Assembly: GCF_022844385.1 (NCBI RefSeq)
Contig: NZ_JALHLX010000004.1
Coordinates: 14,832 to 78,831 of the forward strand
From: Hydrogenophaga sp.
Lineage (GTDB): Bacteria > Pseudomonadota > Gammaproteobacteria > Burkholderiales > Burkholderiaceae_C
DNA length: 64,000 nucleotides
Reading direction: 5' to 3'
Below, in pieces: positions 2-16,012 of the stretch. The stretch's first letter is position 1; each line of letters opens with the position of its first letter. The translations under genes were made by a program, and so were the position numbers. Below the pieces are notes generated by a model. That model was not told the DNA's origin and did not search any database. It saw only the letters and a list, made by a program, of their open reading frames with translations.

Positions 2-655
2 CCGGCCAAGGTCGCGCTGTTGCTCGAAGAAACCGGACTGCCCTACGAACTGGTGCCGGTGGATACGCGCAAGGGCGAGCAGCACGAGGCCGCGTTCACG
101 GCGATCAATCCCAACGCGAAAACGCCGGCCCTGGTCGACGGCGACGCGGTGGTGTTCGACAGCAATGCCATCCTACTGTATCTGGCGGAGAAGTCCGGCC
201 AGTTCCTGCCGCCAGACACGCCCGAGGCCCGTGCACAGATGCTGTCTTGGTTAATGTTCGTCGCCACCGGGGTCGGCCCGTATTCCGGGCAGGCGGTTCA
301 TTTCAAACACTTTGCCCCCGAGCCCAAGGCCTATGCGGTCAACCGCTACGACTTCGAAGCCTGGCGCCACTGGAAGATCATCGACCAGCAACTGGCCCAG
401 CATCGCTACATGCTCGGCGAGACCTACACCCTGGTCGACATGGCTGTCTGGGGCTGGGCGCGCGCCGTGCCGTTTGTGCTCGGGGCCGCCGCGTGGGAGC
501 AGTTGCCCAACGTCAAGCGCCTGCTCGATGAGATCAACACCCGTCCGGCCGCTCAGCGTGCCGAAGCTCTCAAGGCCAAGCACGCCTTCAAGGCCGAGAT
601 GGACGAAGAGGCACGGGCAGTCATGTTCCCGCAAAACGCCCGTTTGACCGCCTGA
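2..655 (+). CDS. Glutathione S-transferase (YfcG/YghU-like), 5' end outside the window
   Basis: The frame is open from base 2 (PAKVALLLEETGLPYE). It has the NPNAKTPALVD and FDSNAILLYLAEK GST N-domain motifs plus GPYSGQAVHF and YTLVDMAVWGW in the C-domain. Confidence 0.9.
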   Translation, partial: PAKVALLLEETGLPYELVPVDTRKGEQHEAAFTAINPNAKTPALVDGDAVVFDSNAILLYLAEKSGQFLPPDTPEARAQMLSWLMFVATGVGPYSGQAVHFKHFAPEPKAYAVNRYDFEAWRHWKIIDQQLAQHRYMLGETYTLVDMAVWGWARAVPFVLGAAAWEQLPNVKRLLDEINTRPAAQRAEALKAKHAFKAEMDEEARAVMFPQNARLTA

Positions 656-809: not shown

Positions 810-3095
810 ATGCAAGTTTCCGAACAACCGATCCTGCGCGACCTTGTTCTCGTCGGAGGGGGCCACAGCCACGTTGTCGTGCTGCGCATGCTCGCCATGC
901 AACCCGAGTCTGGCCTGCGCATCACCCTCATCTGCACCGACATCGACACGCCTTACTCCGGCATGCTGCCTGGCTACATCTCGGGCCACTACAGCTTTGA
1001 CGAGGTGCACATCGACCTGGGCCGTCTGGCCTCGTTTGCCGGAGCGCGCTTCATCCATGGTGAAGTGACGGGCCTCGATCGGTCCAACCAGCGTGTGCTC
1101 ATGAAGGACCGGCCCTCGGTGCCGTACGACCTGCTCTCCATCAACATCGGCTCCACACCCAATGTGCGCCAGGTGAAAGGCGCGCAAGCACACGCAGTGC
1201 CCGTGAAGCCCATCGCCCACTTCAACCTCCGCTGGCTGAATCTGCTCGAGCGCGTGCGCCTGCTGCGCGATCGATTCACGATCGCGGTGGTCGGCGGCGG
1301 TGCGGGCGGGGTTGAACTGGTGCTGTCGATGCAGTACCGGCTGCGCAGCGAGCTGCAAAAGCTGGGGCGCAATCCCGATTGGCTGCACTTTGTGTTGCTC
1401 ACGGCGGGCGACTCCATCCTGCCGACGCACAACGCCGGGGTACGCGCGCGCTTTGCCCGCGTGCTCAAAGAGCGCCACGTCGCGGTGCATACGCGTGCGG
1501 AGGTGCATCAGGTCGCGCCCGGTTGCCTGCACACGCGCGACGGTCGAACCTTCGATGCCGACGAAACGATGTGGGTCACGCAAGCCGGTGGGCCGGCCTG
1601 GCTGCAAGGCACCGGTCTGGCACTGGACGAACACGGCTTCGTCAAAGTCAACGACCGGTTGCAGACGCTGGACGACCCCAAAATCTTCGCCGCAGGGGAT
1701 GTGGCCTCGTTCACCAACCGCCCGCTGGAGAAGGCCGGTGTGTTTGCCGTGCGCATGGGCCCACCGCTGGTGAAGAACCTGCGCTTGTGCCTGCGCGATC
1801 AGCCGACGGTGGCTTTCAACCCGCAACGCAAATGGCTGGCACTGATCTCCACCGGCAATCGATACGCCGTGGCCTCGCGCGGCTCCATCGGCTTCGCCGG
1901 TACCTGGGTCTGGTCCTGGAAGGACTGGATCGATCGCCGCTTCATGCGCCAGTTCACCGAGCTGCCAGACATGGCGCCCGGTGCCGCCCCCTCGGCTGCA
2001 CCGGCCAGCAGCCTGGCGCTGAGCGCCGAAGAATCCCGCCAGGCCATCTCGGCCATTGCCATGCGCTGTGGTGGTTGCGGCGCCAAGGTGGGCGCCAGCA
2101 TCCTGACCCGCGCACTCGGCAGCCTGCAACCGGTCGAGCGCAACGACGTGCTGATCGGGCTTCACTCGCCCGACGACGCCGCCGTGGTGCGCGTGCCGCC
2201 GGGCAAGGCCATGGTTCACACCGTGGACTTCTTTCGCAGCTTCATCGACGACCCTTACCTGTTCGGCAAGGTGGCGGCCAATCACGCGTTGGGCGACATC
2301 TTTGCCATGGGTGCCGAGCCTCAGTCCGCCACAGCGATCGCCACCGTGCCGCCAGGCCTCGAATCCAAGGTGGAAGACCTGCTGCTGCAAATGATGACCG
2401 GCGCGGTCGAGGTGCTCAACGCCGCCGGCTGCGCCTTGGTCGGTGGGCACACCGGTGAGGGCCGCGAACTCGCACTGGGCTTCGCCATCAACGGACTGAT
2501 CGACGAGAACATGGATGGCGTCATGCGCAAGGGCGGCATGCAAGCGGGTGACGTGTTGCTGCTCACCAAGCCCATCGGCACCGGCACGCTGTTCGCCGCC
2601 CACGCGCGGCACGCCGCCAAGGGCCGCTGGATCGATGCGGCGCTGAAATCCATGGTGGTGTCCAACCAGGTCGGCGCGCAGATCCTGCGCGAACATGGCG
2701 CCACCGCCTGCACCGACCTGACCGGTTTCGGCCTGCTGGGGCATCTGGTGGAAATGACCCGTCCCTCGGGAGTGGACGCAGAGCTGCAACTGAGCGCCCT
2801 GCCCTTGCTGGATGGTGCATTGGAATGCGTTGAAGCGGGCATCGTCAGCTCGCTGCAGCCGGCCAATGTGCGGCTGCGCCGAGCCCTGCGCAACGCCGAA
2901 GACTTCGTCAAAGACCCGCGCTATCCGCTGCTGTTCGACCCGCAGACGGCGGGCGGCCTGCTGGCCAGCGTGCCGGGCGACCGGGCAGCCGACTGCATCC
3001 GTTCCCTGCAGGCGGCAGGCTACCTGCACACAGCAGCCATAGGTCATGTCAGCGGCGCGTCCGACTCACTGGAACCCGTGGTGCTCAGCGCATAA
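810..3095 (+). CDS. selD: Selenide,water dikinase (SelD) fused to an N-terminal FAD-dependent pyridine nucleotide-disulfide oxidoreductase (NDH-2/SQR-like) domain
   Basis: N-half: LVLVGGGHSH, VVGGGAGGVE and IFAAGD. C-half: RCGGCGAKVG, DDAAVV, HTVDFF, ANHALGDIFAMG, LVGGHT, LTKPIGTG, TDLTGFGLLGHL, LLFDPQTAGGLL. ATG at 810 was chosen over the ORF-track start at 753. Confidence 0.9.
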   Translation: MQVSEQPILRDLVLVGGGHSHVVVLRMLAMQPESGLRITLICTDIDTPYSGMLPGYISGHYSFDEVHIDLGRLASFAGARFIHGEVTGLDRSNQRVLMKDRPSVPYDLLSINIGSTPNVRQVKGAQAHAVPVKPIAHFNLRWLNLLERVRLLRDRFTIAVVGGGAGGVELVLSMQYRLRSELQKLGRNPDWLHFVLLTAGDSILPTHNAGVRARFARVLKERHVAVHTRAEVHQVAPGCLHTRDGRTFDADETMWVTQAGGPAWLQGTGLALDEHGFVKVNDRLQTLDDPKIFAAGDVASFTNRPLEKAGVFAVRMGPPLVKNLRLCLRDQPTVAFNPQRKWLALISTGNRYAVASRGSIGFAGTWVWSWKDWIDRRFMRQFTELPDMAPGAAPSAAPASSLALSAEESRQAISAIAMRCGGCGAKVGASILTRALGSLQPVERNDVLIGLHSPDDAAVVRVPPGKAMVHTVDFFRSFIDDPYLFGKVAANHALGDIFAMGAEPQSATAIATVPPGLESKVEDLLLQMMTGAVEVLNAAGCALVGGHTGEGRELALGFAINGLIDENMDGVMRKGGMQAGDVLLLTKPIGTGTLFAAHARHAAKGRWIDAALKSMVVSNQVGAQILREHGATACTDLTGFGLLGHLVEMTRPSGVDAELQLSALPLLDGALECVEAGIVSSLQPANVRLRRALRNAEDFVKDPRYPLLFDPQTAGGLLASVPGDRAADCIRSLQAAGYLHTAAIGHVSGASDSLEPVVLSA

Positions 3096-3130
3096 GGAGC
3101 CAGCACCAATTCGCGCCCTCCGAAACCAGC

Positions 3131-3158
3131 TGTAACGAAAGAGGACCCGGCAGCGACT
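3131..3158 (+). promoter_or_regulatory. ECF (SigF-type) promoter motif TGTAACG-N16-CGACT
   Basis: It lies in the intergenic gap about 60 nt upstream of ATG 3217 and matches five other copies in the window and the GTAACC-N16-CGAA consensus of Caulobacter SigF. Confidence 0.75.
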
Positions 3159-3216
3159 GAAGAGCATTCGGGCAATCAACGATTGCCAAAGCCTGAACCC
3201 ACGAAGCCTTCGCCGC

Positions 3217-5367
3217 ATGAAAAGAACTCTGATCCTCGCCACGGTCGCGATGCTGGTGGCCGCCTATTTCTTGCTTGGGCTGGACCGCTACCTGACACTC
3301 GCCGCCGTGCAGGACCGCTTGGGAGACTTCGAAGCCATCCGCCAGGCCTCTCCCATCGCCACCGCGCTCGGTTTCTTCGGTCTGTACGTGCTGGCCACAG
3401 CTCTGTCACTGCCCGGTGCGGTGATCCTGACGCTCGCGGCTGGCGCCCTGTTCGGATTGGCCGGCGGCACGCTGATCGTCTCGTTCGCCTCCAGCCTGGG
3501 CGCCACACTGGCTTTTCTGGCCTCGCGTTACTTGCTCCGGGACAGCGTGCAGGCGCGTTTTGGCGACCGCCTCAAGGCCATCAACGACGGCATGGCCAAG
3601 GACGGCGCGTTGTATCTGTTCACACTGCGCCTGATCCCGGCCTTCCCGTTTTTCCTCGTCAACCTGCTCATGGGCTTGACACCCATCCGCACCGGCACCT
3701 ATTACTGGGTCAGCCAGCTCGGCATGCTCGCGGGCACCCTGGTCTATGTCAACGCCGGCACCCAGCTGGCCCAGCTCTCAAGTCTCTCGGGTATTTTGTC
3801 GCCGGGTGTTCTGCTGTCCTTTGTTCTGCTCGGCGTCTTCCCCATGATCGCCAAAGCCACTCTCGGTTACCTGCAACGCCGGCGCGTTTACGCCAAGTGG
3901 CAACGGCCCAAAACCTTTGACCGCAATCTGGTGGTCATCGGTGGCGGCGCTGCAGGCCTGGTCACCTCCTACATCGCGGCTGCGGTCAAGTCCAAGGTCA
4001 CGCTGGTCGAGGCACACAAGATGGGTGGCGATTGCCTGAACTACGGCTGCGTGCCCAGCAAGGCATTGATCAAGTCGGCCAAACTCGCCCAACAAATGCG
4101 CCATGCAGATCACTATGGACTGGAGGCTGCCACACCGGCCTTCAGTTTCCGGCAGGTGATGGCGCGGGTGCACCGGGTCATCAGCGAGATCGCTCCGCAC
4201 GACAGCGTGGAGCGCTACACCGGGCTGGGTGTCGAGGTCCTGCAGGGTCGCGCCAAAATCGTGGACCCCTGGACGGTCGAAGTCACCCTCAACGACGGTG
4301 GCATCCAACGCCTGACCACCCGCAGCATCGTCATCGCCGCGGGTGCTCGCCCCTTCGTGCCGCCGCTGCCTGGGCTGGACGACGTGGGCTATGTCACCAG
4401 CGACACCCTGTGGGATGAGTTCGCCAAACTGGACACGCCTCCGGCGCGCATGGTGGTGCTGGGCGGTGGTCCGATCGGCTGCGAGCTGGCACAGAGTTTC
4501 GCGCGCCTAGGCTCAAAGGTCACACAAATCGAAATGGCGCCCCGGATCATGATCCGGGAGGACCAGGAGGTGTCCGACCTCGCTCGCGATTCGCTGCAAC
4601 GCGACGGTGTGGATGTACTGACCGGTCACAAGGCACTGCGCTGCGAGCGGGAGGGAGACCACAAGTTCATCGTGGTGGAACATCAGGGTCAGGAAAAACG
4701 CATCGGGTTCGACACTTTGCTGTGCGCAGTCGGCCGATCGGCACGGCTGCAGGGCTACGGACTGGAAGATCTGGGCATACCAACCGAGCGCACGGTGGTG
4801 GTCAACGAGTACCTCGAAACGCTCTACCCCAACATCTTTGCTGCGGGTGACGTGGCCGGACCATTCCAGTTCACCCACACCGCCGGGCACCAGGCCTGGT
4901 ACGCCGCCGTCAACGCGCTGTTCGGCGGCTTCAAGAAATTCAAGGTCGACTACTCCGTCATCCCCTGGGCCACCTTCATAGAGCCCGAGGTTGCCCGGGT
5001 GGGACTGAATGAACAGGACGCCAAGGAAAAGAACATTCCCTACGAAGTCACGAAATACGGCATTGACGATCTGGATCGCGCCATCGCAGATGGTTCGGCA
5101 CACGGATTCGTCAAGGTGCTGACCGTGCCGGGCAAAGACCGCATTCTGGGCGTGACCATCGTGGGCGAACATGCAGGCGACCTGTTGGCCGAGTTCGTGC
5201 TGGCCATGAAGCACGGGCTTGGACTGAACAAGATACTGGGCACCATCCACACCTATCCCACAATGGCCGAGGCGAACAAATACGTCGCTGGTGAATGGAA
5301 ACGCGCTCACGCTCCTCAGCGCGTCCTGGCCTGGTTGGGTCGCTATCACGCCTGGCGCCGAGGCTGA
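3217..5367 (+). CDS. DedA/VTT (TVP38/TMEM64) membrane domain fused to a class I flavoprotein disulfide reductase (MerA/LpdA-like)
   Basis: N-terminal hydrophobic domain with LFTLRLIPAFPFFLVNLLMGLT, then VIGGGAAG, the redox motif GGDCLNYGCVPSK, LGGGPIGCE, AAGDV and HTYPT. Confidence 0.9.
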   Translation: MKRTLILATVAMLVAAYFLLGLDRYLTLAAVQDRLGDFEAIRQASPIATALGFFGLYVLATALSLPGAVILTLAAGALFGLAGGTLIVSFASSLGATLAFLASRYLLRDSVQARFGDRLKAINDGMAKDGALYLFTLRLIPAFPFFLVNLLMGLTPIRTGTYYWVSQLGMLAGTLVYVNAGTQLAQLSSLSGILSPGVLLSFVLLGVFPMIAKATLGYLQRRRVYAKWQRPKTFDRNLVVIGGGAAGLVTSYIAAAVKSKVTLVEAHKMGGDCLNYGCVPSKALIKSAKLAQQMRHADHYGLEAATPAFSFRQVMARVHRVISEIAPHDSVERYTGLGVEVLQGRAKIVDPWTVEVTLNDGGIQRLTTRSIVIAAGARPFVPPLPGLDDVGYVTSDTLWDEFAKLDTPPARMVVLGGGPIGCELAQSFARLGSKVTQIEMAPRIMIREDQEVSDLARDSLQRDGVDVLTGHKALRCEREGDHKFIVVEHQGQEKRIGFDTLLCAVGRSARLQGYGLEDLGIPTERTVVVNEYLETLYPNIFAAGDVAGPFQFTHTAGHQAWYAAVNALFGGFKKFKVDYSVIPWATFIEPEVARVGLNEQDAKEKNIPYEVTKYGIDDLDRAIADGSAHGFVKVLTVPGKDRILGVTIVGEHAGDLLAEFVLAMKHGLGLNKILGTIHTYPTMAEANKYVAGEWKRAHAPQRVLAWLGRYHAWRRG

Positions 5368-5423
5368 ACAATGACCACCATGGAACTGGCGCCCTGCACT
5401 GCGGTTGGCCGGCCTGGTGTTTT

Positions 5424-6125
5424 ATGAAGACCTTCGTGCCTCACACCCCCATGCGTCTGTCCATCATCGTCCCCATGCTCAACGAAGCAACGGGGCTGCC
5501 CCGCCTGCTGAATCGGCTGTCCGTGCTGAAGAGCCAGGGATGCGAGGTACTGATCGTGGACGGTGGAAGCGATGACGGCTGCGCTGAATTGGCCGCTCGA
5601 AAGGGCTTGCAGGTTCTGACTTCGCCAAGAGGTCGCGCCCGGCAGATGAACCACGGCGCTGCTCATGCGACGGGCAACGTGCTCCTGTTCCTGCACGCAG
5701 ACACCGTTCTGCCCGAGGGGGCGATCATCACCATCCGCCGAGCGATGCAAAGCTCCGGTGCCGTCTGGGGCCGTTTCGATGTGGTCATCGACGGACCTCA
5801 TCCCATGCTGCGCGTGGTGGCCCAGCTGATGAACCTTCGCTCGCGCTGGACGGGCATCGCCACTGGTGACCAGGCGATGTTTGTCACCCGCGAGGCCTTC
5901 AATGCAGCGGTTGGATTCCCCGACCAGCCCTTGATGGAAGACATCGAGTTGTCCAAGCGCCTCCTCGAACGATCGCGCCCTGCTTGCATCGGAAACACCG
6001 TGTTGACGTCGGGACGCCGATGGGAGAGCCGTGGCATCTGGCGAACCATCCTTCTGATGTGGCGGCTGCGCTGGGCGTACTGGCGAGGAGCACCTGCGGA
6101 TCAGTTGGCACAGCTGTACAAATAG
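5424..6125 (+). CDS. GT2 glycosyltransferase, TIGR04283 (arsenosugar-associated) type
   Basis: SIIVPMLNEA, VDGGSDDG, GRARQMNHGA, LFLHADT, GDQAMFV, LMEDIELS, TSGRRW. The start is 5424 or 5451. Confidence 0.85.
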   Translation: MKTFVPHTPMRLSIIVPMLNEATGLPRLLNRLSVLKSQGCEVLIVDGGSDDGCAELAARKGLQVLTSPRGRARQMNHGAAHATGNVLLFLHADTVLPEGAIITIRRAMQSSGAVWGRFDVVIDGPHPMLRVVAQLMNLRSRWTGIATGDQAMFVTREAFNAAVGFPDQPLMEDIELSKRLLERSRPACIGNTVLTSGRRWESRGIWRTILLMWRLRWAYWRGAPADQLAQLYK

Positions 6126-6133
6126 GACACCAC

Positions 6134-6772
6134 ATGAATCACTCTGTCCACATCATCGTCTTCGCCAAAGCACCCGTCGCAGGCCTTGCCAAGACAAGGC
6201 TGATCCCGGCGCTGGGAGCAACGGGCGCTGCCCGCCTGGCTGCCTTGATGTTGAAACATGCGGTAGCACAGGCGCTGGCCAGCGAGGTGGGCACTGTGGA
6301 GGTGTGTGTGACGCCTGCGCCTGAAGATCCCATGTGGTCGGAGCTGTTGCCGCAGCACGCAGCGCTGCGCATCAGCGATCAAGGCCATGGTGACTTGGGA
6401 GAGCGAATGGCGCGGGCTGCTCAACGTGCGTTGGCCGCGGGCCACGCGGTGCTGTTGATGGGAACCGATTGCCCGGATCTCACCGCCGAGCGAATTCGAA
6501 TGGCGGCAGCGAACTTGCTCACCAGCGATGCCGCGCTCGTACCAGCCTTTGACGGTGGCTATGTCTTGCTGGCACTGAACCGCTTTGATGCCAGCCTATT
6601 TCGAGACATCGCCTGGAGCACCTCCAGCGTGGCGCAGGTCACGCGGTCTCGGATGGGCCAGTTGGGCTGGAGCGCGACCACCTTGTCAACGCTGCACGAC
6701 ATCGATGAGCCCGATGATCTTCGTTGGCTGCCCGAGGCTTTGCTGCCGGCTGGCATTCAGCAGCCGAAGTGA
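6134..6772 (+). CDS. TIGR04282/DUF2064-type transferase (CofC-like nucleotidyltransferase/GT-A fold)
   Basis: VFAKAPVAGLAKTRL, QGHGDLGERM, GTDCPDL, PAFDGGYVLL, DIDEPDDL; ATG at 6134 follows AGGA. Confidence 0.85.
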   Translation: MNHSVHIIVFAKAPVAGLAKTRLIPALGATGAARLAALMLKHAVAQALASEVGTVEVCVTPAPEDPMWSELLPQHAALRISDQGHGDLGERMARAAQRALAAGHAVLLMGTDCPDLTAERIRMAAANLLTSDAALVPAFDGGYVLLALNRFDASLFRDIAWSTSSVAQVTRSRMGQLGWSATTLSTLHDIDEPDDLRWLPEALLPAGIQQPK

Positions 6773-6777
6773 TGTGA

Positions 6778-7230
6778 TCAGTTGGCAGTCGCCGCAGCGG
6801 CGATACCTTCGAGCGCCTTGCGCAGGTTCTCGACCACGGGGCACTGCGCAACACCATGGCGCTGGGCGAGAAAGGCTGGGTCGTTGTAACCCACCCAGAC
6901 TTGGGCTGATGCGTCCTCCCACACCAACGCCTTGAGCGGCAGGTCGATGCCAACCGATTGCGCGCACTCCATGAAAGGTGTTCCGCCCTGCGGATTGCCG
7001 AAGATGAGCACCTCGGTGGGTCGAAGGGGCCTGCCCACCTTGGTCGCGCCAGCGGCATGGTCGATGCGCGCGAACACGTTCAGGCCCCGTTGTTTGACGA
7101 TGTCCTCCAGCCGGTCCATGGTCGCCTTCGCACCATGAGGACTCTTGACTGCGATCAGACCATCGGCGGCATTGACCAGGCCGAGGGTGGATGTCAGAAC
7201 GAGTGCAGCGATGGCGTGAAAAACTCGCAT
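6778..7230 (-). CDS. DUF302 family exported protein
   Basis: Signal peptide-like N-terminus, then VFARIDHAAGA, LIFGNPQGGTPFM and IGIDLPLKALVWED. Confidence 0.8.
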   Translation of the reverse strand: MRVFHAIAALVLTSTLGLVNAADGLIAVKSPHGAKATMDRLEDIVKQRGLNVFARIDHAAGATKVGRPLRPTEVLIFGNPQGGTPFMECAQSVGIDLPLKALVWEDASAQVWVGYNDPAFLAQRHGVAQCPVVENLRKALEGIAAAATAN

Positions 7231-7341
7231 GGGAAGCCTCCTTGGGGTTGGGGTGGCGCAGCCTGGCTGCTTCAGAGCTTGTGAGAGGCACTCAGCCTCC
7301 AACAAGTTCTCAGGTTCTACGCAGATGACTTCGGAACTGGA

Positions 7342-8187
7342 TCAAGACCGGAGCTGGGACACCCAGGTCTTCTGTGCCTCGGACATCGCTTCGTCGGGCG
7401 TGAGCAGCGCCCCGGTGAGCGCTGTGCGGATCGAGGCTTCGGGCACTGGCAGCGTCTGCGACAACAGCGCGTCGAGCAGGCGACGTGCCTTGGCCAGGCT
7501 CTGGCCGTAGAGCTCGAACACGGCCGACACGCTGACGTGTTGCGTGGGGTCGTCGAGCCAGCAGTCGTAGTCGGTCACCAGGCCCACGGTGGCATAGGCC
7601 ATCTGGGCCTCGCGCGCCAGAAACACCTCGGGTGCGTTGGTCATGCCCACCAGGTGGCAACCCATCTGCCGCAGCAGGTGGCTCTCGGCCTGGGTGCCCA
7701 AGCGGGGGCCGTCCACGCAGGCGTAGGTCAGGCCGCGGTGCACCGAGAGGCCAGACTTGTCTGCAGCGGCCATGACCGCATCGACCAGCGCACTGCTCAC
7801 GGGCTTGGCGGTGGAGACATGTGCTGCGACACCGTCACCGAAGAAAGTTCGCTCGCGCGCACCGCGCGTCCAGTCGATGTACTGCTCGGGCATCGCAAGC
7901 TCGCCAGGCGCGACTTGGATGGCCAGGCTGCCCACGGCCGAAAAGCCCAGCATCATGGTGGCGCCTGCACGCTTGAGCGCATACACGTTGGCGCGGTAGT
8001 TCACTTCGTGCGGCAACAGCCGGTGACCGGCCCCGTGGCGCGCCAGAAACAGCACCGCCTGGCCGTGCAAGGTGCCGCGCAACACCTCGCCCGATGGCGT
8101 GCCGAACGGCGTGTCGCCGCCCTGACGTTCGTGGATGTCCAGACCGTCGAGTTCGTAGAGGCCGGTGCCTCCGATGATGGCGAGCAT
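7342..8187 (-). CDS. mtnP: 5'-methylthioadenosine / purine nucleoside phosphorylase (MTAP family)
   Basis: AIIGGTGLY, TPFGTPS, FLARHG, NYRANVYALK, GPRLGT, VGMT, VTDYDCW. Confidence 0.88.
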   Translation of the reverse strand: MLAIIGGTGLYELDGLDIHERQGGDTPFGTPSGEVLRGTLHGQAVLFLARHGAGHRLLPHEVNYRANVYALKRAGATMMLGFSAVGSLAIQVAPGELAMPEQYIDWTRGARERTFFGDGVAAHVSTAKPVSSALVDAVMAAADKSGLSVHRGLTYACVDGPRLGTQAESHLLRQMGCHLVGMTNAPEVFLAREAQMAYATVGLVTDYDCWLDDPTQHVSVSAVFELYGQSLAKARRLLDALLSQTLPVPEASIRTALTGALLTPDEAMSEAQKTWVSQLRS

Positions 8188-8190
8188 GGT

Positions 8191-9195
8191 TCAGTTCTCC
8201 AGTGGGCGCACGGCGTCCTGCAGCTGATAGGCCGGACCGTGCTGGATGCGGTTGAAGTAGGAGGCGTGGGCGTCGCTGCCCTCGGGCCACAGCTTTTGGA
8301 ATTGCCGCTGCCAGGCGGCGGTATCGATTTCGATGGCGATGGCGTCGATGTGAACCTCACGCTCGACCACGCCGAAACGACGCTCGGCGCCCGTGTACGG
8401 CGAGAGCGCGATGCGGGTGATCAGGCCCGCCGCATCGCCCTGGAAGTTGGGCATGCCGGTGGCGCCGTTGTTGAACACCCAGCGTGCGTGGTCTTGCTTT
8501 GAAGCAAGGCGCTGGAACACGGGCAGACAGGTGTGCGTGCTGGCAAAGGCGTGCACGTCAGCCTCGTCGAACCAGCGTTTCACCGCCTCGCGGTGCACGG
8601 CGTCGCGCAGGTGCTCCTGCGCAAAGCCCCAGCCGGCGAGCGACTGCGCGTCGCCATGCACCACGCCCAGACGCAGTGGACCGACATCGGCGCGCAGCCA
8701 CATCGGCAAGGACCGCAGTTCGCGCTGCTGCTCGGGTGTGACGCAGCTGCGCAGCGCTTTGTGAATGCGGTTGGAGCGTTCGACCACCTGGTCTCCCACC
8801 CAGTCGGGGTAGGCGCAACCGCAGCCGGCATCGGCATCGGCGCTTTCATCGGCGTTCTGGTCGGCCAGCTCGGTCTCCACATTGCCGCGCAAGGCATCAA
8901 AGCGCATCACCGATTGCTGGATGCGGGTGAACACGGCTGGATCGGCGTCAAACCAATGGAAGTCGCCGTTGAACACCATGCGGGCTCGCCCGCGCTCCTG
9001 CCCGAACAGTTCGATCACGCGCTGCAGTGCGGCCTCGTTGCCATACAAGCCGCCCACCACATAAAGCACATCGAGATCTCTCAGGTGCTCAGGCGCCGCG
9101 CTGGCGAACACCGAGGGCGCGTAGCGGTAGTGCAGTGGGCAGCTTCTGCCGGCAGTCGCAGGCGAGGCATCGAGCGTGGGAGCGTCAATGTTCAT
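8191..9195 (-). CDS. Hypothetical protein with degenerate calcineurin-like metallophosphoesterase motifs
   Basis: Motif order VVGGLYGN, FNGDFHWFD, LRGNVE, VVHGD, STHTCLP, NNGATG. ATGA overlap with the upstream ATPase and a 3-nt gap to the phosphorylase. Confidence 0.65.
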   Translation of the reverse strand: MNIDAPTLDASPATAGRSCPLHYRYAPSVFASAAPEHLRDLDVLYVVGGLYGNEAALQRVIELFGQERGRARMVFNGDFHWFDADPAVFTRIQQSVMRFDALRGNVETELADQNADESADADAGCGCAYPDWVGDQVVERSNRIHKALRSCVTPEQQRELRSLPMWLRADVGPLRLGVVHGDAQSLAGWGFAQEHLRDAVHREAVKRWFDEADVHAFASTHTCLPVFQRLASKQDHARWVFNNGATGMPNFQGDAAGLITRIALSPYTGAERRFGVVEREVHIDAIAIEIDTAAWQRQFQKLWPEGSDAHASYFNRIQHGPAYQLQDAVRPLEN

Positions 9196-10037
9196 GGGGT
9201 ACTTCGTTGCAGGGTTGGCAGGCAAGCCGTCAGCGCCGGCGTCGGGCATGGGTTGGGTGTTGAACAGCGGTCGGTTGGCATCGGGCTCAGGCTAGACGCA
9301 TACAGCGCCTGCAGCCGTTCGGCATCGACCTGAGCGATCGGCAAGTCAAATTCCAGCGCGCCATCGCGAAGGCCGATCACGTGATCGGCCAACAACGGCA
9401 GCAGCGCAGGCTGGTGTACCACGGTGATCAGTGTGGCGCCACCGGCGATGCTGCACAGCCATCGGCAGGCATCGGCGGCGGCGGCCGGGTCCAGATTGGC
9501 CGTGGGTTCGTCGGCCAGGATGAGGCGCGGGCGCTGCAGACGCAGGCGTGCAATGCTGAGCTTCTGGCGTTCGCCCCCCGAGAGACGGTCGGTGCGTGTA
9601 TCGCCCAGACCCTCCAGACCAACCACAGCAAGCGCCTCGTCGGCCTCAGCCACGAGCGTCGCGGGGTACAGGCGGCTCCAGCTGCGCCAGCCGCTCAGGC
9701 GTCCCAGCGCGCCGATCAACACGTTCTCGCGCGCGCTCAAGCGCGACACCATGTGCAGCCCCTGCATGACCTGGCCCACCTCGCTCCGCCAGGCGCGCAG
9801 CGCGGCGTCGGACACCGGCTCCTGCAGCGGCCGCCCCAGCACGCTGACCGATCCTTCGGTGGGAACCGCCAGGCCACCGAGCACCCGCAGCAGCGTCGAT
9901 TTGCCCGCGCCGTTGTGCCCGACGATGGCCACCCGCTCGCCGGCACCGATGTGCAGTTCGTCCAGTCGCAGCAAGGTCCGCGCACCGGCTTTCACGGCCA
10001 GCTTGCGGATGTGGATGTCGTGTGTTGTGGCGCTCAC
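9192..10037 (-). CDS. PhnC-like ABC transporter ATP-binding protein
   Basis: Walker A GHNGAGKS, signature LSGGERQK, ILADEPTANLDP; the GTG start overlaps the permease stop. Confidence 0.9.
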   Translation of the reverse strand: MSATTHDIHIRKLAVKAGARTLLRLDELHIGAGERVAIVGHNGAGKSTLLRVLGGLAVPTEGSVSVLGRPLQEPVSDAALRAWRSEVGQVMQGLHMVSRLSARENVLIGALGRLSGWRSWSRLYPATLVAEADEALAVVGLEGLGDTRTDRLSGGERQKLSIARLRLQRPRLILADEPTANLDPAAAADACRWLCSIAGGATLITVVHQPALLPLLADHVIGLRDGALEFDLPIAQVDAERLQALYASSLSPMPTDRCSTPNPCPTPALTACLPTLQRSTP

Positions 10038-10930
10038 AGCAAAGCCTGGCGTATGCGCCGAGAGAGGCTGTCGAACGCCACCACCAGCGCGATGACGACG
10101 AGCAGGATGGTGGCCAGGCGGCTCCACTGGAACAGGCTGACCGCCTCGGAGATCAGCAGGCCGAGGCCGCCCGCGCCGATGAGGCCCAGGATGGTCGAGT
10201 CGCGGATGTTGAACTCCCAGATGTAGAGGTGGTTCGACACGAACTGGGGCAGCACGGCGGGCCACACGGCGTTGAAGAAGACCTGGGTGCGCGACGCGCC
10301 GGTGGCTTGCACGGCGTGGATGGCGCCCATGTCCAGCGACTCGACCGACTCCGCGTACAGCTTGCCGTAGGTGCCCATGGAATGCAGCGCAATGGCCAGT
10401 ATGCCGGCGGTCGGACCCAGGCCAACAATGCCCACCAGCACCAGGCCGAACACCAGTGTGTGAATGGCGCGCAGCACGTCAAGCAGACCTTTGCTCGCCC
10501 AGGCCAGCCAGCGAGGTGCGCCCAGGTTGCGCGCGCTCAGCAGGCCGGGGGGCAAGGCCAGCAAGGCCCCCAGCAGCGAACCCAGGGTGGCGATCTGGAA
10601 CGTGACCCAGGTGGCACGCCCCAGTGCCGCCAGAAAATCGGCCTCCACCACGCGGCGGTCTTCCACGCGCAGCAAGGTGCCGTCGTCGCTGCGGTATTCC
10701 AGGCGCTCCGGCCCGAACCACACATCCAGAAAACTCGGGTACGCGAATTCACCGATCGACTTGATCAGATTGGCCACGGGGTTGCGCCCCAGCGACAACT
10801 CGCCCGCCACCCAGAGGCTGCCCAGGCAGACGCCCACCAGCAGCGCATAGGCGAGCACCAGCAGCGCAAAACGCGCCCGACCGGACCAACGCGGTGGCGA
10901 GAAAGGCGGCTGGATCAGCAGCGCGCTCAC
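10034..10930 (-). CDS. PhnE-like ABC transporter permease
   Basis: LRAIHTLVFGLVLV, GKLYAESVE, WEFNIRDSTILGLIGAGGLG. Confidence 0.9.
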   Translation of the reverse strand: MSALLIQPPFSPPRWSGRARFALLVLAYALLVGVCLGSLWVAGELSLGRNPVANLIKSIGEFAYPSFLDVWFGPERLEYRSDDGTLLRVEDRRVVEADFLAALGRATWVTFQIATLGSLLGALLALPPGLLSARNLGAPRWLAWASKGLLDVLRAIHTLVFGLVLVGIVGLGPTAGILAIALHSMGTYGKLYAESVESLDMGAIHAVQATGASRTQVFFNAVWPAVLPQFVSNHLYIWEFNIRDSTILGLIGAGGLGLLISEAVSLFQWSRLATILLVVIALVVAFDSLSRRIRQALL

Positions 10931-11793
10931 TTGGGCTGCAGCGTGCCAGTGGCCAGACCAGCGTCCCGGATCGGCTTGTAGGCCCGGTTGTCGCTGTTGA
11001 TGAAGCCGGTGTAGCTCGGCGGCATCAGACCGGGCTGCGTCTTGAGAAGGGGGCCAACCTCAGCCAGCGCCGCCTGCAGGCGCGCCACGAAGGCCTTGTC
11101 CTTGTGGAGCGCTTCGCTGACGGCAAACGCGTCGTTGGGCAAAGGATCGGACTGCCAGATGATCTTCGAGCGCTCGGCTTTGATCAGGCCCTGCGCGATC
11201 ATCGCGTCGCGGTTGCGGTTGTAGTCGGCGCCAGCGTCGATCTGCCCGGCAGTGACCTGGGTCTGGATCGCCTGGTGCTTGGTGTGCAGCACGCGAGAAA
11301 AATGCTTCGCGGGATCGATGCCCTGCTTCATGAAGAAATGCAGCGGGATCAGGTAACCGGAGGTGGATCCTTTGTCGCCAAAGGCAAAGGTGCGCCCTTT
11401 GAGGTCGGCCACCGAATTGATGCCCGAGTCCGGATGGGTGACGATCATCGCGAAGTATTCGGGCTTGCCTTCGTACAGGATGGTCGAGACCACCTGGGCA
11501 TTGGCCGCCTGGTTGGCCAGCACGTAGCCCCACGGACCCATCAAGGCCAGGTCGGTTTCACCATTGGCGAGCGACTTGGCCAAGCCTTCCCAGCTGTCGA
11601 CTGTGCGCAGCTCTACCGGGCGACCCAGGCGCTGCGAGAGGTGTTGCGCCAGCGGCCGGTAGGTGGCGTCGTTGCGCTCGCGATCGGGCTGGAACAGGCC
11701 GACACCGAATTTCAGCGGCGTGGTCTGTGCCTGTGCGGTGAGCGTTGCGAGCAGCAGGAACAGGCTGGCCAGCCAGCGGGTGAACACGATCAT
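10927..11793 (-). CDS. PhnD-like phosphate/phosphonate/oxyanion ABC substrate-binding protein
   Basis: Signal peptide, GPWGYV, FAFGDKGSTSGYLIP, SDPLPNDAF; the ATG overlaps the radical SAM stop (ATGA). Confidence 0.9.
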   Translation of the reverse strand: MIVFTRWLASLFLLLATLTAQAQTTPLKFGVGLFQPDRERNDATYRPLAQHLSQRLGRPVELRTVDSWEGLAKSLANGETDLALMGPWGYVLANQAANAQVVSTILYEGKPEYFAMIVTHPDSGINSVADLKGRTFAFGDKGSTSGYLIPLHFFMKQGIDPAKHFSRVLHTKHQAIQTQVTAGQIDAGADYNRNRDAMIAQGLIKAERSKIIWQSDPLPNDAFAVSEALHKDKAFVARLQAALAEVGPLLKTQPGLMPPSYTGFINSDNRAYKPIRDAGLATGTLQPK

Positions 11794-12836
11794 GGGGTCT
11801 CTCCTGAAGTTACGGTTTGGGATGGGCTTTGATGCGCGGCATGAACAGAAATCGTCGCTGCCGCTGGGTCGGCCGACTCCAGTGCACCACCGCAACTGCT
11901 GCCCTGTCCTGCGGTGCAGCCGTAGCAGTGGTCAGCAATCCGGATGGCCTCGCCTTCGGGATCCGCACCGAGCAGTTCCCGCAGGTGCGGACGGTAGGTC
12001 TTGCCCAGGCGGGCCGGCAGCCCCAGCATCTGGTTGAAGTCGCAGTCGTACAGATCGCCCTGCCAGTCCACGCTGATCATGGAGCGGCACATCACGGTGT
12101 TGAGGTTGTCGGCCTGGTACGCCTGCTTGAGCAGTTGCATATAGGTGACGAAGGTGCCCTTGGAGACCAGGGTGCTCCCAAAACGCTGCACCGGCATGTT
12201 GGTCAGCGCAAACAGGTGGTTGAAGCGGATGCCGAAGTGCTGCAGCAGCTCGCGCTTGTAGTCGGCCTCCAGTGCACCTTGCGGTGGTGGTAACGACGGG
12301 CCTTGGGGGTTGTAGACGAGATTGAGCGTGAGACCACTGTCCGGCACTCCGTAACCCAGCGCGTTGAGTTGCTGCAGCCCGGTGATGCTGAGATCGAACA
12401 CGCCATCGCCCCGCTGACGATCGACATTGGCCGGGGAATAACACGGCATGGAAGCCACCACCTGAACACCTTGCTCAGCCAGGAAGGCCGCCAGGTCTTC
12501 CTGACCGGGCTCGCTGAGGATGGTCAGGTTGCAGCGGTCGATCACCGCGACACCCAGGCTCCGTGCCGCCACCACCAGGCGCCTGAAGTGGTCACTGAGT
12601 TCCGGCGCGCCCCCGGTGAGGTCCAGCGTGGTGATGCGCCTGGCTTTCAGCACCTCGATCACCAGGTCCACCGTTGCCCCGTCCATCATTTCGGTGCGGT
12701 TGGGGCCGGCGTTGACGTGGCAATGCAGGCAGGACTGGTTGCAGCGGTAACCGAGGTTGACCTGCAGAGTGGTCAGGGGTTGGCGCCGGATGGCGGGAAA
12801 GTCGGTGGCGGTGAGCAGCGGCAGGGTGTCGTGCAT
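11790..12836 (-). CDS. arsS: Radical SAM / Cys-rich protein of the ArsS (TIGR04167, DUF3641) family
   Basis: CxxxCxxC in NLGYRCNQSCLHCHVNAGP, LDLTGGAPEL, YDCDFNQML and the C-terminal HCYGCTAGQGSSCGGAL (Cys, not UGA, at every position read). Confidence 0.88.
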   Translation of the reverse strand: MHDTLPLLTATDFPAIRRQPLTTLQVNLGYRCNQSCLHCHVNAGPNRTEMMDGATVDLVIEVLKARRITTLDLTGGAPELSDHFRRLVVAARSLGVAVIDRCNLTILSEPGQEDLAAFLAEQGVQVVASMPCYSPANVDRQRGDGVFDLSITGLQQLNALGYGVPDSGLTLNLVYNPQGPSLPPPQGALEADYKRELLQHFGIRFNHLFALTNMPVQRFGSTLVSKGTFVTYMQLLKQAYQADNLNTVMCRSMISVDWQGDLYDCDFNQMLGLPARLGKTYRPHLRELLGADPEGEAIRIADHCYGCTAGQGSSCGGALESADPAAATISVHAAHQSPSQTVTSGETP

Positions 12837-12872: not shown

Positions 12873-12900
12873 AGTCGTTCACAACCGATTGTTTGTTACA
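12873..12900 (-). promoter_or_regulatory. ECF promoter motif TGTAACA-N16-CGACT upstream of the arsS operon
   Basis: The reverse strand reads TGTAACAAACAATCGGTTGTGAACGACT, about 36 nt upstream of ATG 12836. Confidence 0.8.
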
Positions 12901-12940: not shown

Positions 12941-13576
12941 TCACCACCTCAGCAGCCGCGGACCGAGGACCGCGCCCAGCAGCCCAGTCAGCAGGACTCC
13001 CAGCGAGTACCAGACTGCCACAAACGTGGCCGAGACCTCAGGACACACCAGGGAATAACCCATGGCGCCCAGTGCGCCGGCCATCAATCCAGCGTTGAAG
13101 CCGGCAGCCCGCAGTTGGGTGGGTGCGAGTCCGCGAAGCGCCCACAGTGCGCCGGCCAGTGCCGGCAACGAAAGCGCCACCACATTCGTTGGGCAGCTGA
13201 GCCAGGTTTCGCCAAACAGGGCCGCCATGCGTTGATCCGGCGCGCTGGACACCAGCGTGAGCGCGCCCAGGGCCAGCATGGTGGCAAACACAGCCAACAC
13301 GGCCCGCACGGGCCAGTGCGTGCGCGCCACCGGCCGGGAAAGCCTCGCCGTCAACCAGCCAGCCGCCAGCGCCAAGCTGCCGCCGTACATGAGCTTCAGC
13401 CACGGTGCCTGCGTAGCCCACATGGTCACTGGGATCGATCCCATGCTCACCAGCGCGGACAAGGCGCTGGCGATCAAGCCAAGCGCCACCACTGGGGCCA
13501 GTCGCCGCAGCACGGGCGCCTGGGGGGCAGGCCCTGCGCCCTTGGCCAACATCTCGATCAACGATTGCGTTTTCAT
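12941..13576 (-). CDS. nrsF: NrsF-type (DUF1109) membrane anti-sigma factor
   Basis: MKTQSLIEMLAKG start, six hydrophobic segments, Cys motifs WLSCP, RGLAPT and YSLVCPE...FVAVWY; ATGA-coupled to the sigma gene. Confidence 0.85.
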   Translation of the reverse strand: MKTQSLIEMLAKGAGPAPQAPVLRRLAPVVALGLIASALSALVSMGSIPVTMWATQAPWLKLMYGGSLALAAGWLTARLSRPVARTHWPVRAVLAVFATMLALGALTLVSSAPDQRMAALFGETWLSCPTNVVALSLPALAGALWALRGLAPTQLRAAGFNAGLMAGALGAMGYSLVCPEVSATFVAVWYSLGVLLTGLLGAVLGPRLLRW

Positions 13577-14139
13577 GTTCCTGTGTCTTTCACCCATTGC
13601 GCCAGCCGCTTCAACCCTCTGTGCACTTGTACCTTGATGGCCGACTCCGAGATGCCGGTGCGCATCGATGCTTCGGTTACCGACAGCCCCTCGATCTTCG
13701 TCAACACGATGGCCTGACGTTGAACATGTGGCAACTCCTGAAGCAGCCTTTCAAGGTCTCGCTGCGCACCGTCTTCGACCGGCTCGGCTGCCAGCAAGGC
13801 CTCGTCCACATCGTCCAGCGCGTCGTGGAGGTTCTCCCGCCGCCCACGGCGCCTCCAGAGATCGACCAGCTTGTGGCGAGCGATCGCGGTGACCCAGGCG
13901 CTGACCGGCAACGTCGGGTCAAAGGTTCCGCGTTGCAGATGAAGTGCCAGCAGCGTTTCCTGCACCAGGTCTTCGATGTCGTCTGGCGTCGACTGCATGC
14001 GCCGCCGCAGGAATCCGCGGATGCGCAACGCGATCTTCTCCAGCGCCTCGCGGTAAGCGACCTCATCGCCTTGCTGCGCACGCAGCCACAGCGGTTTCAG
14101 GCTGGCTTCGAAATCGTTGGGACCTGTCTCTCTAGGCAT
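13573..14139 (-). CDS. sigF: ECF RNA polymerase sigma factor (SigF/EcfF, ECF16-like)
   Basis: EDLVQETLLALH, WVTAIARHKLVD, LTKIEGLSVTEAS, IKVQVHRGLKRL; directly upstream of an NrsF-type gene. Confidence 0.85.
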   Translation of the reverse strand: MPRETGPNDFEASLKPLWLRAQQGDEVAYREALEKIALRIRGFLRRRMQSTPDDIEDLVQETLLALHLQRGTFDPTLPVSAWVTAIARHKLVDLWRRRGRRENLHDALDDVDEALLAAEPVEDGAQRDLERLLQELPHVQRQAIVLTKIEGLSVTEASMRTGISESAIKVQVHRGLKRLAQWVKDTGT

Positions 14140-14166
14140 TTCGTGGCAGCGGCTGCTTTGGTTACA
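14140..14166 (-). promoter_or_regulatory. ECF promoter motif TGTAACC-N16-CGAA (autoregulatory)
   Basis: The reverse strand reads TGTAACCAAAGCAGCCGCTGCCACGAA, abutting the sigma ATG at 14139. Confidence 0.75.
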
Positions 14167-14373: not shown

Positions 14374-15207
14374 ATGAGCACCAGCCGACGCCAGTTTTTC
14401 CTCTTCACTGCCGGGTGCCTTCCGGCCTTGTTGCCCCTGGGCCACAGCCATGCTGCAGTGTTCGATCACAGCCACGCCGCCTGGACCGGTCTGCTCAAAC
14501 GGCATGTCGTGCTGCTTCGCGGCGGGCAGGCATCGCAGGTTCGCTACGCAGGCTTCTCAAAGGACCGCGGGGACCTCACGGCCTATCTGTCGTCACTTTC
14601 CGCCGTCACCATTGACGGGTTCTCGGCCTTCTCCCTGGCGCAGCGCCAGGCGTTCCTGATCAACGCCTACAACGCGTTCACCGTCGAACTGATCCTCACC
14701 AAATACCCGGACCTGACGTCGATCAAGGAGTTGGGCAGCCTCCTCTCCAGTCCCTGGAAGCCGAAATGGATTTCCCTGCTGGGCAGCAAGGTGTCGCTGG
14801 ACGACATCGAACACGGCATGCTGCGCAAGCGGGGCGTCTATGACGATCCCAGGGTGCATTTCGCCGTGAACTGCGCGTCCATCGGGTGTCCAATGTTGCG
14901 CGAAGAAGCCTTTGTAGCAACGCGCATCGACGCCCAACTGGAGGAGCAGTCGAACCGTTTCATGGCTGACCGGACGCGCAACCGGTTTGACGAAGCCGCG
15001 GGGCGACTGCAACTCTCGCGTATCTTTGACTGGTATGCCGACGATTTCAAGCGAGGTGATCGGGGCGTCACCTCATTGCACGGTTTTGCCGGGCTGTACG
15101 CCGAACGCTTGTCGGACTCTGCAGCGGGCCGAGATCGGATCCGCAGCGGGCGCGTTGACATCACCTACCTCGACTACGACTGGTCCCTGAACGACGCAAG
15201 CCGCTGA
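14374..15207 (+). CDS. DUF547 domain exported protein, possible Tat substrate
   Basis: SRRQFF twin-arginine-like leader, AFLINAYNAFT, SLDDIEHGMLR, DPRVHFAVNCASIGCP, LSRIFDWY, YDWSLN. An alternative ATG is at 14308. Confidence 0.85.
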   Translation: MSTSRRQFFLFTAGCLPALLPLGHSHAAVFDHSHAAWTGLLKRHVVLLRGGQASQVRYAGFSKDRGDLTAYLSSLSAVTIDGFSAFSLAQRQAFLINAYNAFTVELILTKYPDLTSIKELGSLLSSPWKPKWISLLGSKVSLDDIEHGMLRKRGVYDDPRVHFAVNCASIGCPMLREEAFVATRIDAQLEEQSNRFMADRTRNRFDEAAGRLQLSRIFDWYADDFKRGDRGVTSLHGFAGLYAERLSDSAAGRDRIRSGRVDITYLDYDWSLNDASR

Positions 15208-15213: not shown

Positions 15214-15462
15214 TTACTGAGGGTGACGCACGTCTTCGCGAGGCAGCTGGCTTCTGCTGACTTCGTTTTTGGCTGCGCTGTAGCTGGACACGAGGTAGGG
15301 CACCAGGTAGTTGAGTGCCACATGCATCCACGAGGGCGCGTGAGCGGCCAAGATGGCCTCACCCTGATTGATCACATTGAGTGCAGTGCCGACAACGGCA
15401 GACACACGCAGTGCGTTCAGGACGATGGATCTGGACAAGGCTGTGCTGATGAGATTTTTCAT
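15214..15462 (-). CDS. nrtS: NrtS-like small two-helix membrane protein
   Basis: ALRVSAVVGTALNVINQG and NYLVPYLVSSY match the family pattern. Confidence 0.65.
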   Translation of the reverse strand: MKNLISTALSRSIVLNALRVSAVVGTALNVINQGEAILAAHAPSWMHVALNYLVPYLVSSYSAAKNEVSRSQLPREDVRHPQ

Positions 15463-15486: not shown

Positions 15487-15513
15487 TTCGTTCGCTTGAC
15501 CCGATCGGTTACA
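15487..15513 (-). promoter_or_regulatory. ECF promoter motif TGTAACC-N16-CGAA
   Basis: The reverse strand reads TGTAACCGATCGGGTCAAGCGAACGAA, about 25 nt upstream of ATG 15462. Confidence 0.75.
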
Positions 15514-15543: not shown

Positions 15544-15570
15544 TGTAACGAACCAGACGCGCTTTCGACC
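15544..15570 (+). promoter_or_regulatory. ECF promoter motif TGTAACG-N15-CGAC upstream of the bufferin operon
   Basis: TGTAACGAACCAGACGCGCTTTCGACC; the spacer is one base shorter than in the other copies. Confidence 0.65.
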
Positions 15571-15654
15571 ATGCAGGGTAGGCCAGATTGTCTGACCTGC
15601 CCGCTCGGAGGAATTTCCATGAGCGGATTTGCCAACCCCTTGCAGGAGTGATTC

Positions 15655-15975
15655 ATGGAAAACACTGTCGATCGCCGCACCGCCACCCGCCTCGCATCCG
15701 GCGCCGCCCTGGCCCTGGCCATGGGTGCCGCGCTCACGCTGGCGGCTGCACCTGTTGCCGCACAGAGCGCGGACAAAGAAAAATGCTTCGGCGTCGCGCT
15801 GAAGGGCAAGAACGATTGCGCCGCCGGGCCAGGCACCACCTGCGCCGGCACGTCCAAGGTGGACTACCAGGGCAACGCCTGGTCGCTGGTTCCAAAAGGA
15901 ACGTGCGAGAAGACCGCATCGCCCAAGTCGCCATCCGGATTCGGGCAATTGAAGGAGTTCAAGGAAAAGGCTTGA
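15655..15975 (+). CDS. bufA1: DUF2282 bufferin-type RiPP precursor (periplasmic metallophore)
   Basis: Signal peptide followed by the four-Cys core [14 protein letters not shown]...[23 protein letters not shown]. Confidence 0.9.
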
Positions 15976-16012
15976 TGCGCTTGAGCTGGACTCTCACTAA
16001 CCAGGCTTTCTT

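Follow-up and report, generated by a model that had tools for sequence, protein, structure and literature searches.

An ArsM-less variant of the ArsS-type ("arsenosugar-type") gene cluster, with an importer in its operon, on an accessory island of a Hydrogenophaga-like bacterium

The DNA analysed here (the window) comprises 64,000 nucleotides of Hydrogenophaga sp. (NCBI RefSeq assembly GCF_022844385.1, contig NZ_JALHLX010000004.1, positions 14,832 to 78,831 of the forward strand). Between positions 810 and 12,836 it carries genes for an ArsS-family radical S-adenosylmethionine (SAM) enzyme and its partners. These genes form an accessory island in a Hydrogenophaga-like bacterium, best explained by a pathway of the ArsS type ("arsenosugar-type"). 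What is particular here is an ArsM-less variant of the widespread ArsS cluster, with an importer and a Cys-rich, metallophosphoesterase-like (MPE-like) protein in the place of ArsM. The reading we favour is an ArsM-less, importer-fed pathway of the arsenosugar type, in which the cell would take up methylated arsenic and turn it into an arsenosugar-like riboside. We hold it tentatively, at somewhat less than an even chance, and prefer it to a selenium version, to a mosaic of unrelated neighbours and to the same architecture acting on another substrate.

Two convergent operons make up the island, 5 nt separating their stop codons. Their genes, in window coordinates, are the following.

810 to 3095 (alternative start 753), plus strand: fusion of a TIGR03169 flavoprotein, of pyridine-nucleotide-disulfide type and NDH-2/SQR-like, with SelD (TIGR03169 493 bits, cut-off 310; TIGR00476 295 bits, cut-off 125)
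3217 to 5367, plus strand: DedA/VTT domain fused to a class-I flavin adenine dinucleotide (FAD) disulfide reductase (profile matches; CLNYGC and HxxxxE motifs)
5451 to 6125, plus strand: GT2 glycosyltransferase, TIGR04283 (284 bits, cut-off 182)
6134 to 6772, plus strand: DUF2064/TIGR04282 protein of CofC/MobA-like nucleotidyltransferase fold (200 bits, cut-off 134; CofC 53 bits)
6778 to 7305, minus strand: DUF302 protein, last gene of its operon, 36 nt after the MTAP-like gene
7342 to 8187, minus strand: MTAP-family nucleoside phosphorylase, adenine type (TIGR01694 271.7 bits, cut-off 274.85)
8191 to 9195, minus strand: Cys-rich MPE-like open reading frame (ORF), 334 aa (predicted fold)
9192 to 10037, minus strand: PhnC-like ATPase of a transporter of the ATP-binding cassette (ABC) type (profile matches)
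10034 to 10930, minus strand: ABC permease, PhnE family (TIGR01097 229 bits, cut-off 217)
10927 to 11793, minus strand: PhnD-family periplasmic binding protein (HtxB 170 bits)
11790 to 12836, minus strand: ArsS-family radical SAM enzyme (TIGR04167 456 bits, cut-off 300; DUF3641)

Profile scans confirmed every gene that the sequence-only reading had named and placed, the MPE-like ORF being confirmed by its fold. The junctions are also as that reading had described them: arsS/phnD and phnC/MPE overlap by ATGA, phnD/phnE and phnE/phnC by GTGA, and 3 nt lie between the MPE-like and MTAP-like genes. Translational coupling spans the whole arsS operon. The DUF302 gene is a further operon member that the earlier list did not contain; a homologue with 70% identity is found near SelD in congener G309. 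Such an arrangement bears on the possibility that the island is a mosaic of unrelated neighbours, namely selenium assimilation for SelU by the SelD fusion and the DedA::reductase, uptake of reduced phosphorus by an HtxB/PtxB-like ABC system, an MTAP for salvage of methionine or 5'-deoxyadenosine, and a stand-alone ArsS. We regard this as quite improbable, because overlapping start and stop codons join arsS and the genes for importer, MPE-like protein and phosphorylase in a single operon, the same promoter motif precedes both operons and the same partners recur elsewhere in many independent arrangements.

Concerning the core of the pathway, ArsS is present here in its Cys form, with no in-frame TGA, and combines the radical SAM motif CNQSCLHC (CxxxCxxC) with DUF3641. 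Among 301 Burkholderiales genomes surveyed, ArsS exceeded the cut-off in 106, and enrichment was tested in a subsample of 40 genomes with and 40 without ArsS. Neighbours were counted by tblastn and ORF clustering within a 10-kb range at the 80 closest ArsS loci, which are proteobacterial. TIGR04283 occurs in 40/40 ArsS-positive versus 1/40 ArsS-negative genomes (p = 8e-22). Near ArsS, GT2 was found at 55-59 of the 80 loci, DUF2064 at 49-53, the DedA::reductase at 39-44, a TIGR03169-type flavoprotein at 21-23, the MPE-like gene at 20-21 and DUF547 at 15, with the MTAP-like gene at 11 (GT2 being there as well in 11/11), a PhnDEC-like importer at 3 and SelD at 1-2. The expected co-occurrence in other genomes is thus borne out, with GT2 and DUF2064 following ArsS near-perfectly in Burkholderiales and the MTAP-like gene recurring. 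The lone ArsS-negative genome with TIGR04283 carries it beside two genes, one of them ArsM-like and the other a radical SAM gene with weak similarity to ArsS (47 bits; G016:C1:2946732-2949077); this may be a diverged sister system.

These associations are not new as such. NCBIfam labels TIGR04167, TIGR04282 and TIGR04283 "arsenosugar biosynthesis", so that the sequence-only reading went too far in calling the pathway undescribed. The literature was searched for a described ArsS/GT2/DUF2064/MTAP pathway and for genome mining linking SelD with radical SAM proteins; only ArsS itself and annotation-level mentions were found, and no characterisation of the partner enzymes beyond ArsS appeared in the literature searched. 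According to PMC13598754, ArsS adenosylates dimethylarsenite, DMAs(III), in vitro. As to the DedA::reductase, it has the redox disulfide CLNYGC and the HxxxxE motif; it was rejected as a MerA, lacking the C-terminal Cys pair and scoring under the MerA cut-off.

The sequence-only reading had remarked that the window holds neither ArsM nor SelA. This extends to the whole genome, in which no tRNA-Sec was found either. The best ArsM score genome-wide is 56 bits (cut-off 263), and an ArsM-like protein from ArsS loci used as query gave only a weak, partial match of 36% identity. Across Burkholderiales, ArsM-like genes are enriched with ArsS (13/40 versus 2/40 genomes, p = 0.003); for the family at large this speaks in favour of arsenic. 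An ArsM-like gene lies beside ArsS at 14 of the 80 loci. These 14 loci and the 20 with an MPE-like gene share no member (P = 0.012). Moreover, the slot between arsS and the MPE-like gene is conserved as an importer slot and is filled by two unrelated transporter types: the MPE-like gene is accompanied by a PhnDEC-type importer in 3/3 loci and by an SSS-type symporter in 8/9 loci. The mutual exclusion and the importer slot together suggest that importer and MPE-like protein substitute for ArsM, the substrate being supplied from outside.

The MPE-like protein found no match in sequence searches of Pfam, NCBIfam and PDB. Structure prediction (pLDDT 89.5) gave a calcineurin-like metallophosphoesterase alpha/beta sandwich, and Foldseek related the model to 1nnw, 3qfn (the Ap4A hydrolase SapH) and 3rqz at E = 2e-10. 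Conserved motifs are GGLYGN, NGDFHWFD, GNVE, VHGD and SHTC, together with four conserved Cys, C19, C125-G-C127 and C223. The dinuclear metal site of the fold (DxH, GDxxDR, GNHD/E, H, GHxH) is incomplete: motif I reads GGLYGN without Asp and His, GNHE is changed to GNVE, and GHxH to SHTC. As modelled, the protein thus has a predicted calcineurin-like metallophosphoesterase fold in which half of the dinuclear metal site is replaced. Since phosphatase-fold arsenate reductases and CxC arsenite sites exist, it may bind or reduce a metalloid via its thiols. Its homologues fall into at least 6940 clusters, nearly all named "hypothetical protein", and the findings point to this large family as a key adaptor. 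One homologue, P0093 (525 aa), is 65% identical over 96% of the query and has an additional DUF2064 domain; this natural MPE::DUF2064 fusion bears the name "rSAM/selenodomain-associated transferase 1". A protein of about 261 aa, secreted and without NCBIfam match (L041 15407-16192), was seen in 20 of the 80 ArsS neighbourhoods, in 12 of these 20 together with the MPE-like gene; it is absent from the genome of the window.

The binding protein of the importer is closest to HtxB (about 45% identity). Its pocket residues W52, S128, H158, R178 and D206 are conserved in 4/4 ArsS-linked binding proteins. Residue roles in HtxB and PtxB are taken from PMC5700983. Compared with HtxBCDE and PtxABC, W52 and the R178-D206 cap are kept, whereas N128 of HtxB is Ser and F158 is His, which gives a PtxB-like third-oxygen site; on these two exchanges the importer was rejected as a true HtxB. 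Judged by its pocket, the protein corresponds to the uncharacterised "hybrid" HtxB/PtxB class of PMC5700983. Assignment to the TIGR04553 "selenate" system was rejected as well (104 bits, cut-off 250), the pocket being unlike that of a true member (Y, S, H, T, Y in the putative selenate binder versus W, S, H, R, D in the ArsS-linked one). For a mosaic of unrelated neighbours the importer is a point on either side: the nearest solved relative of its binding protein is a hypophosphite binder, whereas the oxidase companion of phosphite or hypophosphite systems is absent, no PtxD- or HtxA-type enzyme being found in the operon by profile scans.

A binding protein of phosphite/hypophosphite lineage with a "hybrid" pocket is also what may be expected if the same architecture handled another substrate, i.e. 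if a reduced phosphorus, tellurium, antimony or sulfur species were adenosylated by the ArsS homologue, and the unassigned chemistry of the MPE-like protein is compatible with this. We consider it the least probable of the alternatives, as ArsS has no precedent on such substrates and the ArsM-like association of the wider family indicates methylation of the arsenic type.

Turning to the phosphorylase, its score lies just below the equivalog cut-off of MtnP/MTAP (methionine salvage), while it exceeds that of the MTIP model NF006599 (229.1 bits, cut-off 223); its closest PDB match is the MTAP 4glf. Fold and phosphate- and adenine-binding residues are shared with MTAP (R60, H61, H65, M196, T197, D220, D222). 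At the 5'-alkylthio pocket, in contrast, cluster-linked MTAPs have the smaller A/S/T and A/S in place of human V233 and V236, the enzyme of the island showing S/A; the comparison is with what we take to be the human MTAP sequence, to which all conserved catalytic positions align. No paralogue exists in its own genome, and 14/15 congeners have no homologue (E <= 1e-20). Among the congeners only G314 has the gene (96% identical), and ArsS too is confined to it. Hence the gene was rejected as a housekeeping bystander: the phosphorylase is accessory in the genus and, unlike MtnP, welded into the arsS operon. That it scores like an ordinary MTAP/MTIP would suit a mosaic of unrelated neighbours, against which stands the fact that the genus is without MTAP except where ArsS is present.

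Upstream of arsS lie genes of a possible control system, and copies of a promoter-like motif are found in front of both operons.

12941 to 13597, minus strand: NrsF anti-sigma factor (PF06532 195 bits)
13573 to 14139, minus strand: extracytoplasmic function (ECF) sigma factor of SigF type, start uncertain (longest ORF reaches 14505)
14374 to 15207, plus strand: DUF547 protein exported by twin-arginine translocation, recurrent in ArsS clusters
3131 to 3156, plus strand: ECF (SigF-type) promoter-like motif, TGTAAC-N17-CGA, 61 nt 5' of the DedA::reductase start
12875 to 12900, minus strand: ECF (SigF-type) promoter-like motif, 39 nt 5' of the arsS start
14141 to 14166: another ECF motif, at the sigma factor gene's 5' end

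The motif TGTAAC-N16-18-CGA occurs in 5 copies in the window, with 0.38 expected, and 0/100 shuffles reached 5; the remaining two copies flank a neighbouring bufferin-type operon. An exact copy of its own is absent from the selD fusion. With an ECF sigma factor and NrsF side by side, and the same motif before both operons next to sigF-nrsF, both look like one regulon and are, from these sequence features, apparently under SigF/NrsF control. General conservation of the motif before arsS was rejected as weak. In Caulobacter the known inducers of SigF/NrsF systems are chromate and cadmium, not arsenic, which again speaks for a substrate other than arsenic.

Importing and converting methylated arsenic, as we favour it, would proceed as follows; each step, like everything past family assignment, we infer. 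The ABC importer would take up a small oxyanion, our best guess being a methylated As(V) species, dimethylarsinate or methylarsonate; behind this step stands the binding pocket, intermediate between those of HtxB (hypophosphite) and PtxB (phosphite). The Cys-rich MPE-like protein would bind the oxyanion or reduce it to the trivalent form, while thiols or electrons would be recycled by the disulfide reductase tethered to DedA and by the flavoprotein domain (TIGR03169). Using SAM, ArsS would add a 5'-deoxyadenosyl radical and so form a nucleoside like 5'-deoxy-5'-(dimethylarsinoyl)adenosine, from which the MTAP-like phosphorylase would strip adenine to leave a 5-substituted ribose-1-phosphate. 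DUF2064 and GT2 might then activate this product and transfer it to an acceptor, yielding an arsenosugar-like riboside. For SelU (tRNA 2-selenouridine), selenophosphate would come from the SelD half of the fusion. A route of import, reduction, 5'-X-adenosine formation, phosphorolysis, activation and glycosyl transfer had been proposed by the sequence-only reading; its logic fits the comparative data, while its core turned out to be catalogued and its selenium case fails.

In comparison with the cyanobacterial ArsM-ArsS system and the NCBIfam set (TIGR04167, TIGR04283, TIGR04282, NF038099), the island shares an ArsS equivalog, both transferases over cut-off with order-wide co-occurrence with ArsS, and the expected chemistry, 5'-deoxyadenosylation of a trivalent metalloid. 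It differs in the genome-wide absence of ArsM, in the ABC importer and Cys-rich protein of MPE fold within the operon, in a dedicated MTAP-like phosphorylase, in the fusion of the flavoprotein partner to SelD, and in apparent ECF sigma control rather than ArsR. To our knowledge, no product has been demonstrated for a proteobacterial cluster.

Several points weigh against an arsenic pathway. No ArsM is encoded in the genome, and neither ArsR nor ars resistance genes emerged among the conserved neighbours of the 80 ArsS loci. We know of no transporter for methylated arsenic, and it is not evident what a cell would gain from taking up a toxic metalloid. Only fold and context stand behind the roles given to the MPE-like protein, DUF2064, GT2, DedA::reductase and TIGR03169, and the ECF motif stands 5' of arsS in only 2/80 other loci. 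Furthermore, G314 is the only congener with ArsS, TIGR04283 nevertheless exceeds its cut-off in six of those without it, and the reductase/transferase module adjoins SelD in several arrangements. As ArsS-less congeners keep this module, it is not dedicated only to ArsS products. "Arsenosugar" transferases can therefore exist without ArsS, repeatedly beside SelD, which contradicts strict ArsS dependence, at least in this genus.

The last of these points lead to a selenium version of the pathway. Here a selenium oxyanion would be imported and reduced by the DedA::reductase and TIGR03169, SelD and/or ArsS would activate it (as selenophosphate or as 5'-seleno-adenosine), and the phosphorylase and the two transferases would complete an organoselenium sugar or nucleoside. 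We consider this unlikely. What speaks for it is the fusion of the genome's only SelD to the cluster flavoprotein, which abuts the operons here, in G314 and in the Hylemonella locus L017. The lack of ArsM and of an ars context is in keeping with it, as are the six ArsS-less congeners with TIGR04283, and an importer fits a nutrient better than a toxin. The SelD domain is a regular SelD, its loop CGGCGAK carrying the Cys and Lys that we take to align with Cys17 and Lys20 of the E. coli enzyme. Yet the order-wide data show no association of SelD with ArsS (36/40 ArsS-positive versus 30/40 ArsS-negative genomes, p = 0.14); 4/40 ArsS-positive genomes are without any SelD, and most clusters with the flavoprotein have none. 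A gap of 121 nt with a separate promoter motif divides the selD fusion from the DedA::reductase gene, the pocket of the ArsS-linked binder is unlike that of the putative selenate binder, and only arsenic chemistry has been demonstrated for the ArsS radical SAM family.

From the lack of SelU and SelAB genes in the window, the sequence-only reading had argued that the metalloid may be selenium. This argument does not stand, because contig C25 encodes a SelU (346 bits, cut-off 220), and the genome has no SelD besides the fusion; an ordinary client for SelD is thus present, and SelU alone accounts for it. With SelU present, an orphan-SelD trait was rejected. Standalone flavoproteins of other ArsS clusters are true TIGR03169 proteins (337 and 373 bits; cut-off 310). 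Parsimony suggests that it is the flavoprotein which the cluster requires, the version fused to SelD being the one in use in this lineage; SelD would then adjoin the cluster on account of its flavoprotein half, a recurrent partner there. Compared with other TIGR03169::SelD fusion proteins, architecture, scores of both halves over cut-off and the Cys-Lys catalytic loop are the same, whereas the flavoprotein, fused or standalone, is embedded in an ArsS-type cluster here and at 21-23 of the 80 ArsS loci, so that TIGR03169 is tied to this cluster as well as to selenium. The SenABC (selenoneine) system is similar in that a SelD enzyme adjoins a glycosyltransferase, with a potential selenophosphate-to-sugar logic. 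It differs in that the glycosyltransferase here is a GT2 of TIGR04283 and not SenB, and in that SelD must also serve SelU; none of the cluster genes proved to be of EgtB/SenA or SenB type in general scans, no genome-wide SenB search being made. The EgtB homologue next to SelD in congener G303 scores as an EgtB (557 bits, cut-off 360) and falls short of SenA (364 bits, cut-off 420).

Among congeners the modules occur in various combinations. The fusion is the sole SelD in G000, G314 and G311 and stands alongside a canonical SelD in G303 and G309. It is alone in G309, neighbours only the DedA::reductase in G311, and in G303 is followed by DedA::reductase, GT2 and DUF2064, forming an operon (NDH::SelD-DedA::FADred-GT2-T4282) in a genome that is 99.99% complete and has no ArsS. 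In G314, homology to the window starts at 796, bases 3086-7338 are missing, and the fusion adjoins an arsS operon without GT2 and T4282 at that site. Such separation of modules is compatible with a mosaic of unrelated neighbours, and the G303 operon favours the selenium version. TIGR04283 forms a divergon with DUF2064, DedA::reductase and TIGR03169 in 5/6 congeners examined, 4 of them ArsS-less; in G314, TIGR03169 was not seen in the divergon stretch read.

A second such module directly follows canonical SelD in G303 and G313. In G303 (L103, G303:C4:288000-307999) the order is GntR, GSDH, EgtB, EgtD, canonical SelD, HAD, DUF4399, TIGR03169 and DedA::reductase, the last two being divergent from a single-ORF GT2::DUF2064 fusion; the ergothioneine genes are directly joined to SelD. 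In G313 (L104, G313:C1:277000-296999), which has no ArsS, a TIGR04553 "putative selenate" ABC importer (350 bits), SelD, a type II HAD protein, TIGR03169 and DedA::reductase are divergent from GT2-DUF2064. Both loci support the selenium version, the importer of G313 adding to this. It is conceivable, though in our estimate distinctly unlikely, that the TIGR03169-DedA::reductase-GT2-DUF2064 module is a SelD-dependent pathway of its own for selenium handling or seleno-glycoconjugates, to which the ArsS-importer-MPE-MTAP operon feeds 5'-adenosylated selenium and not arsenic. If true, a new trait of selenium utilisation would at present be going under the wrong label, "arsenosugar biosynthesis". 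The genome of the window itself has, on the 4-kb contig C209, a second DedA::FAD reductase (61-77% identity), GT2 (54%) and DUF2064 (44%). This set resembles the ArsS-independent "set 2" divergon of the congeners and could stem from a co-binned strain.

Under the arsenic reading the island is of interest since, in the literature searched, arsenosugar synthesis has been shown experimentally only for the first committed step, ArsS. For the subsequent loss of adenine and formation of a riboside from an adenosyl-arsenical, the island offers a complete and testable set of candidate enzymes: an adenine-type phosphorylase, a protein of nucleotidyltransferase fold and a GT2 in one apparent regulon with ArsS. 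That ArsM and the importer/MPE pair exclude each other suggests that methylated arsenic produced by others serves some bacteria as starting material for such products. The reductase/transferase module is paired repeatedly with SelD, in ArsS-less genomes too; this casts doubt on the database label, and the metabolism of arsenic may be linked to that of selenium.

Some further genes were noted around the island and elsewhere in the genome. Just 5' of the selD fusion (2-655, plus strand) lies a Nu-class, YfcG/YghU-like glutathione-dependent disulfide oxidoreductase, which is not conserved at the matching position in the sister genome G314. EgtD and EgtB homologues, 76-79% identical to those linked to SelD in G303, are found on the 4.4-kb contigs C200 and C201, a region that seems to assemble poorly. 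The bufferin-type operon beside sigF-nrsF (15544-19700), preceded by an ECF motif, encodes a DUF2282 precursor, MbnB/DUF692, DUF2063 and DoxX, then a C92 papain-like amidase and an AhpD/CMD-like protein. Directly 3' of the motif copy at 15488-15513 (minus strand) is a membrane-like ORF of 82 aa (15214-15462, minus strand).

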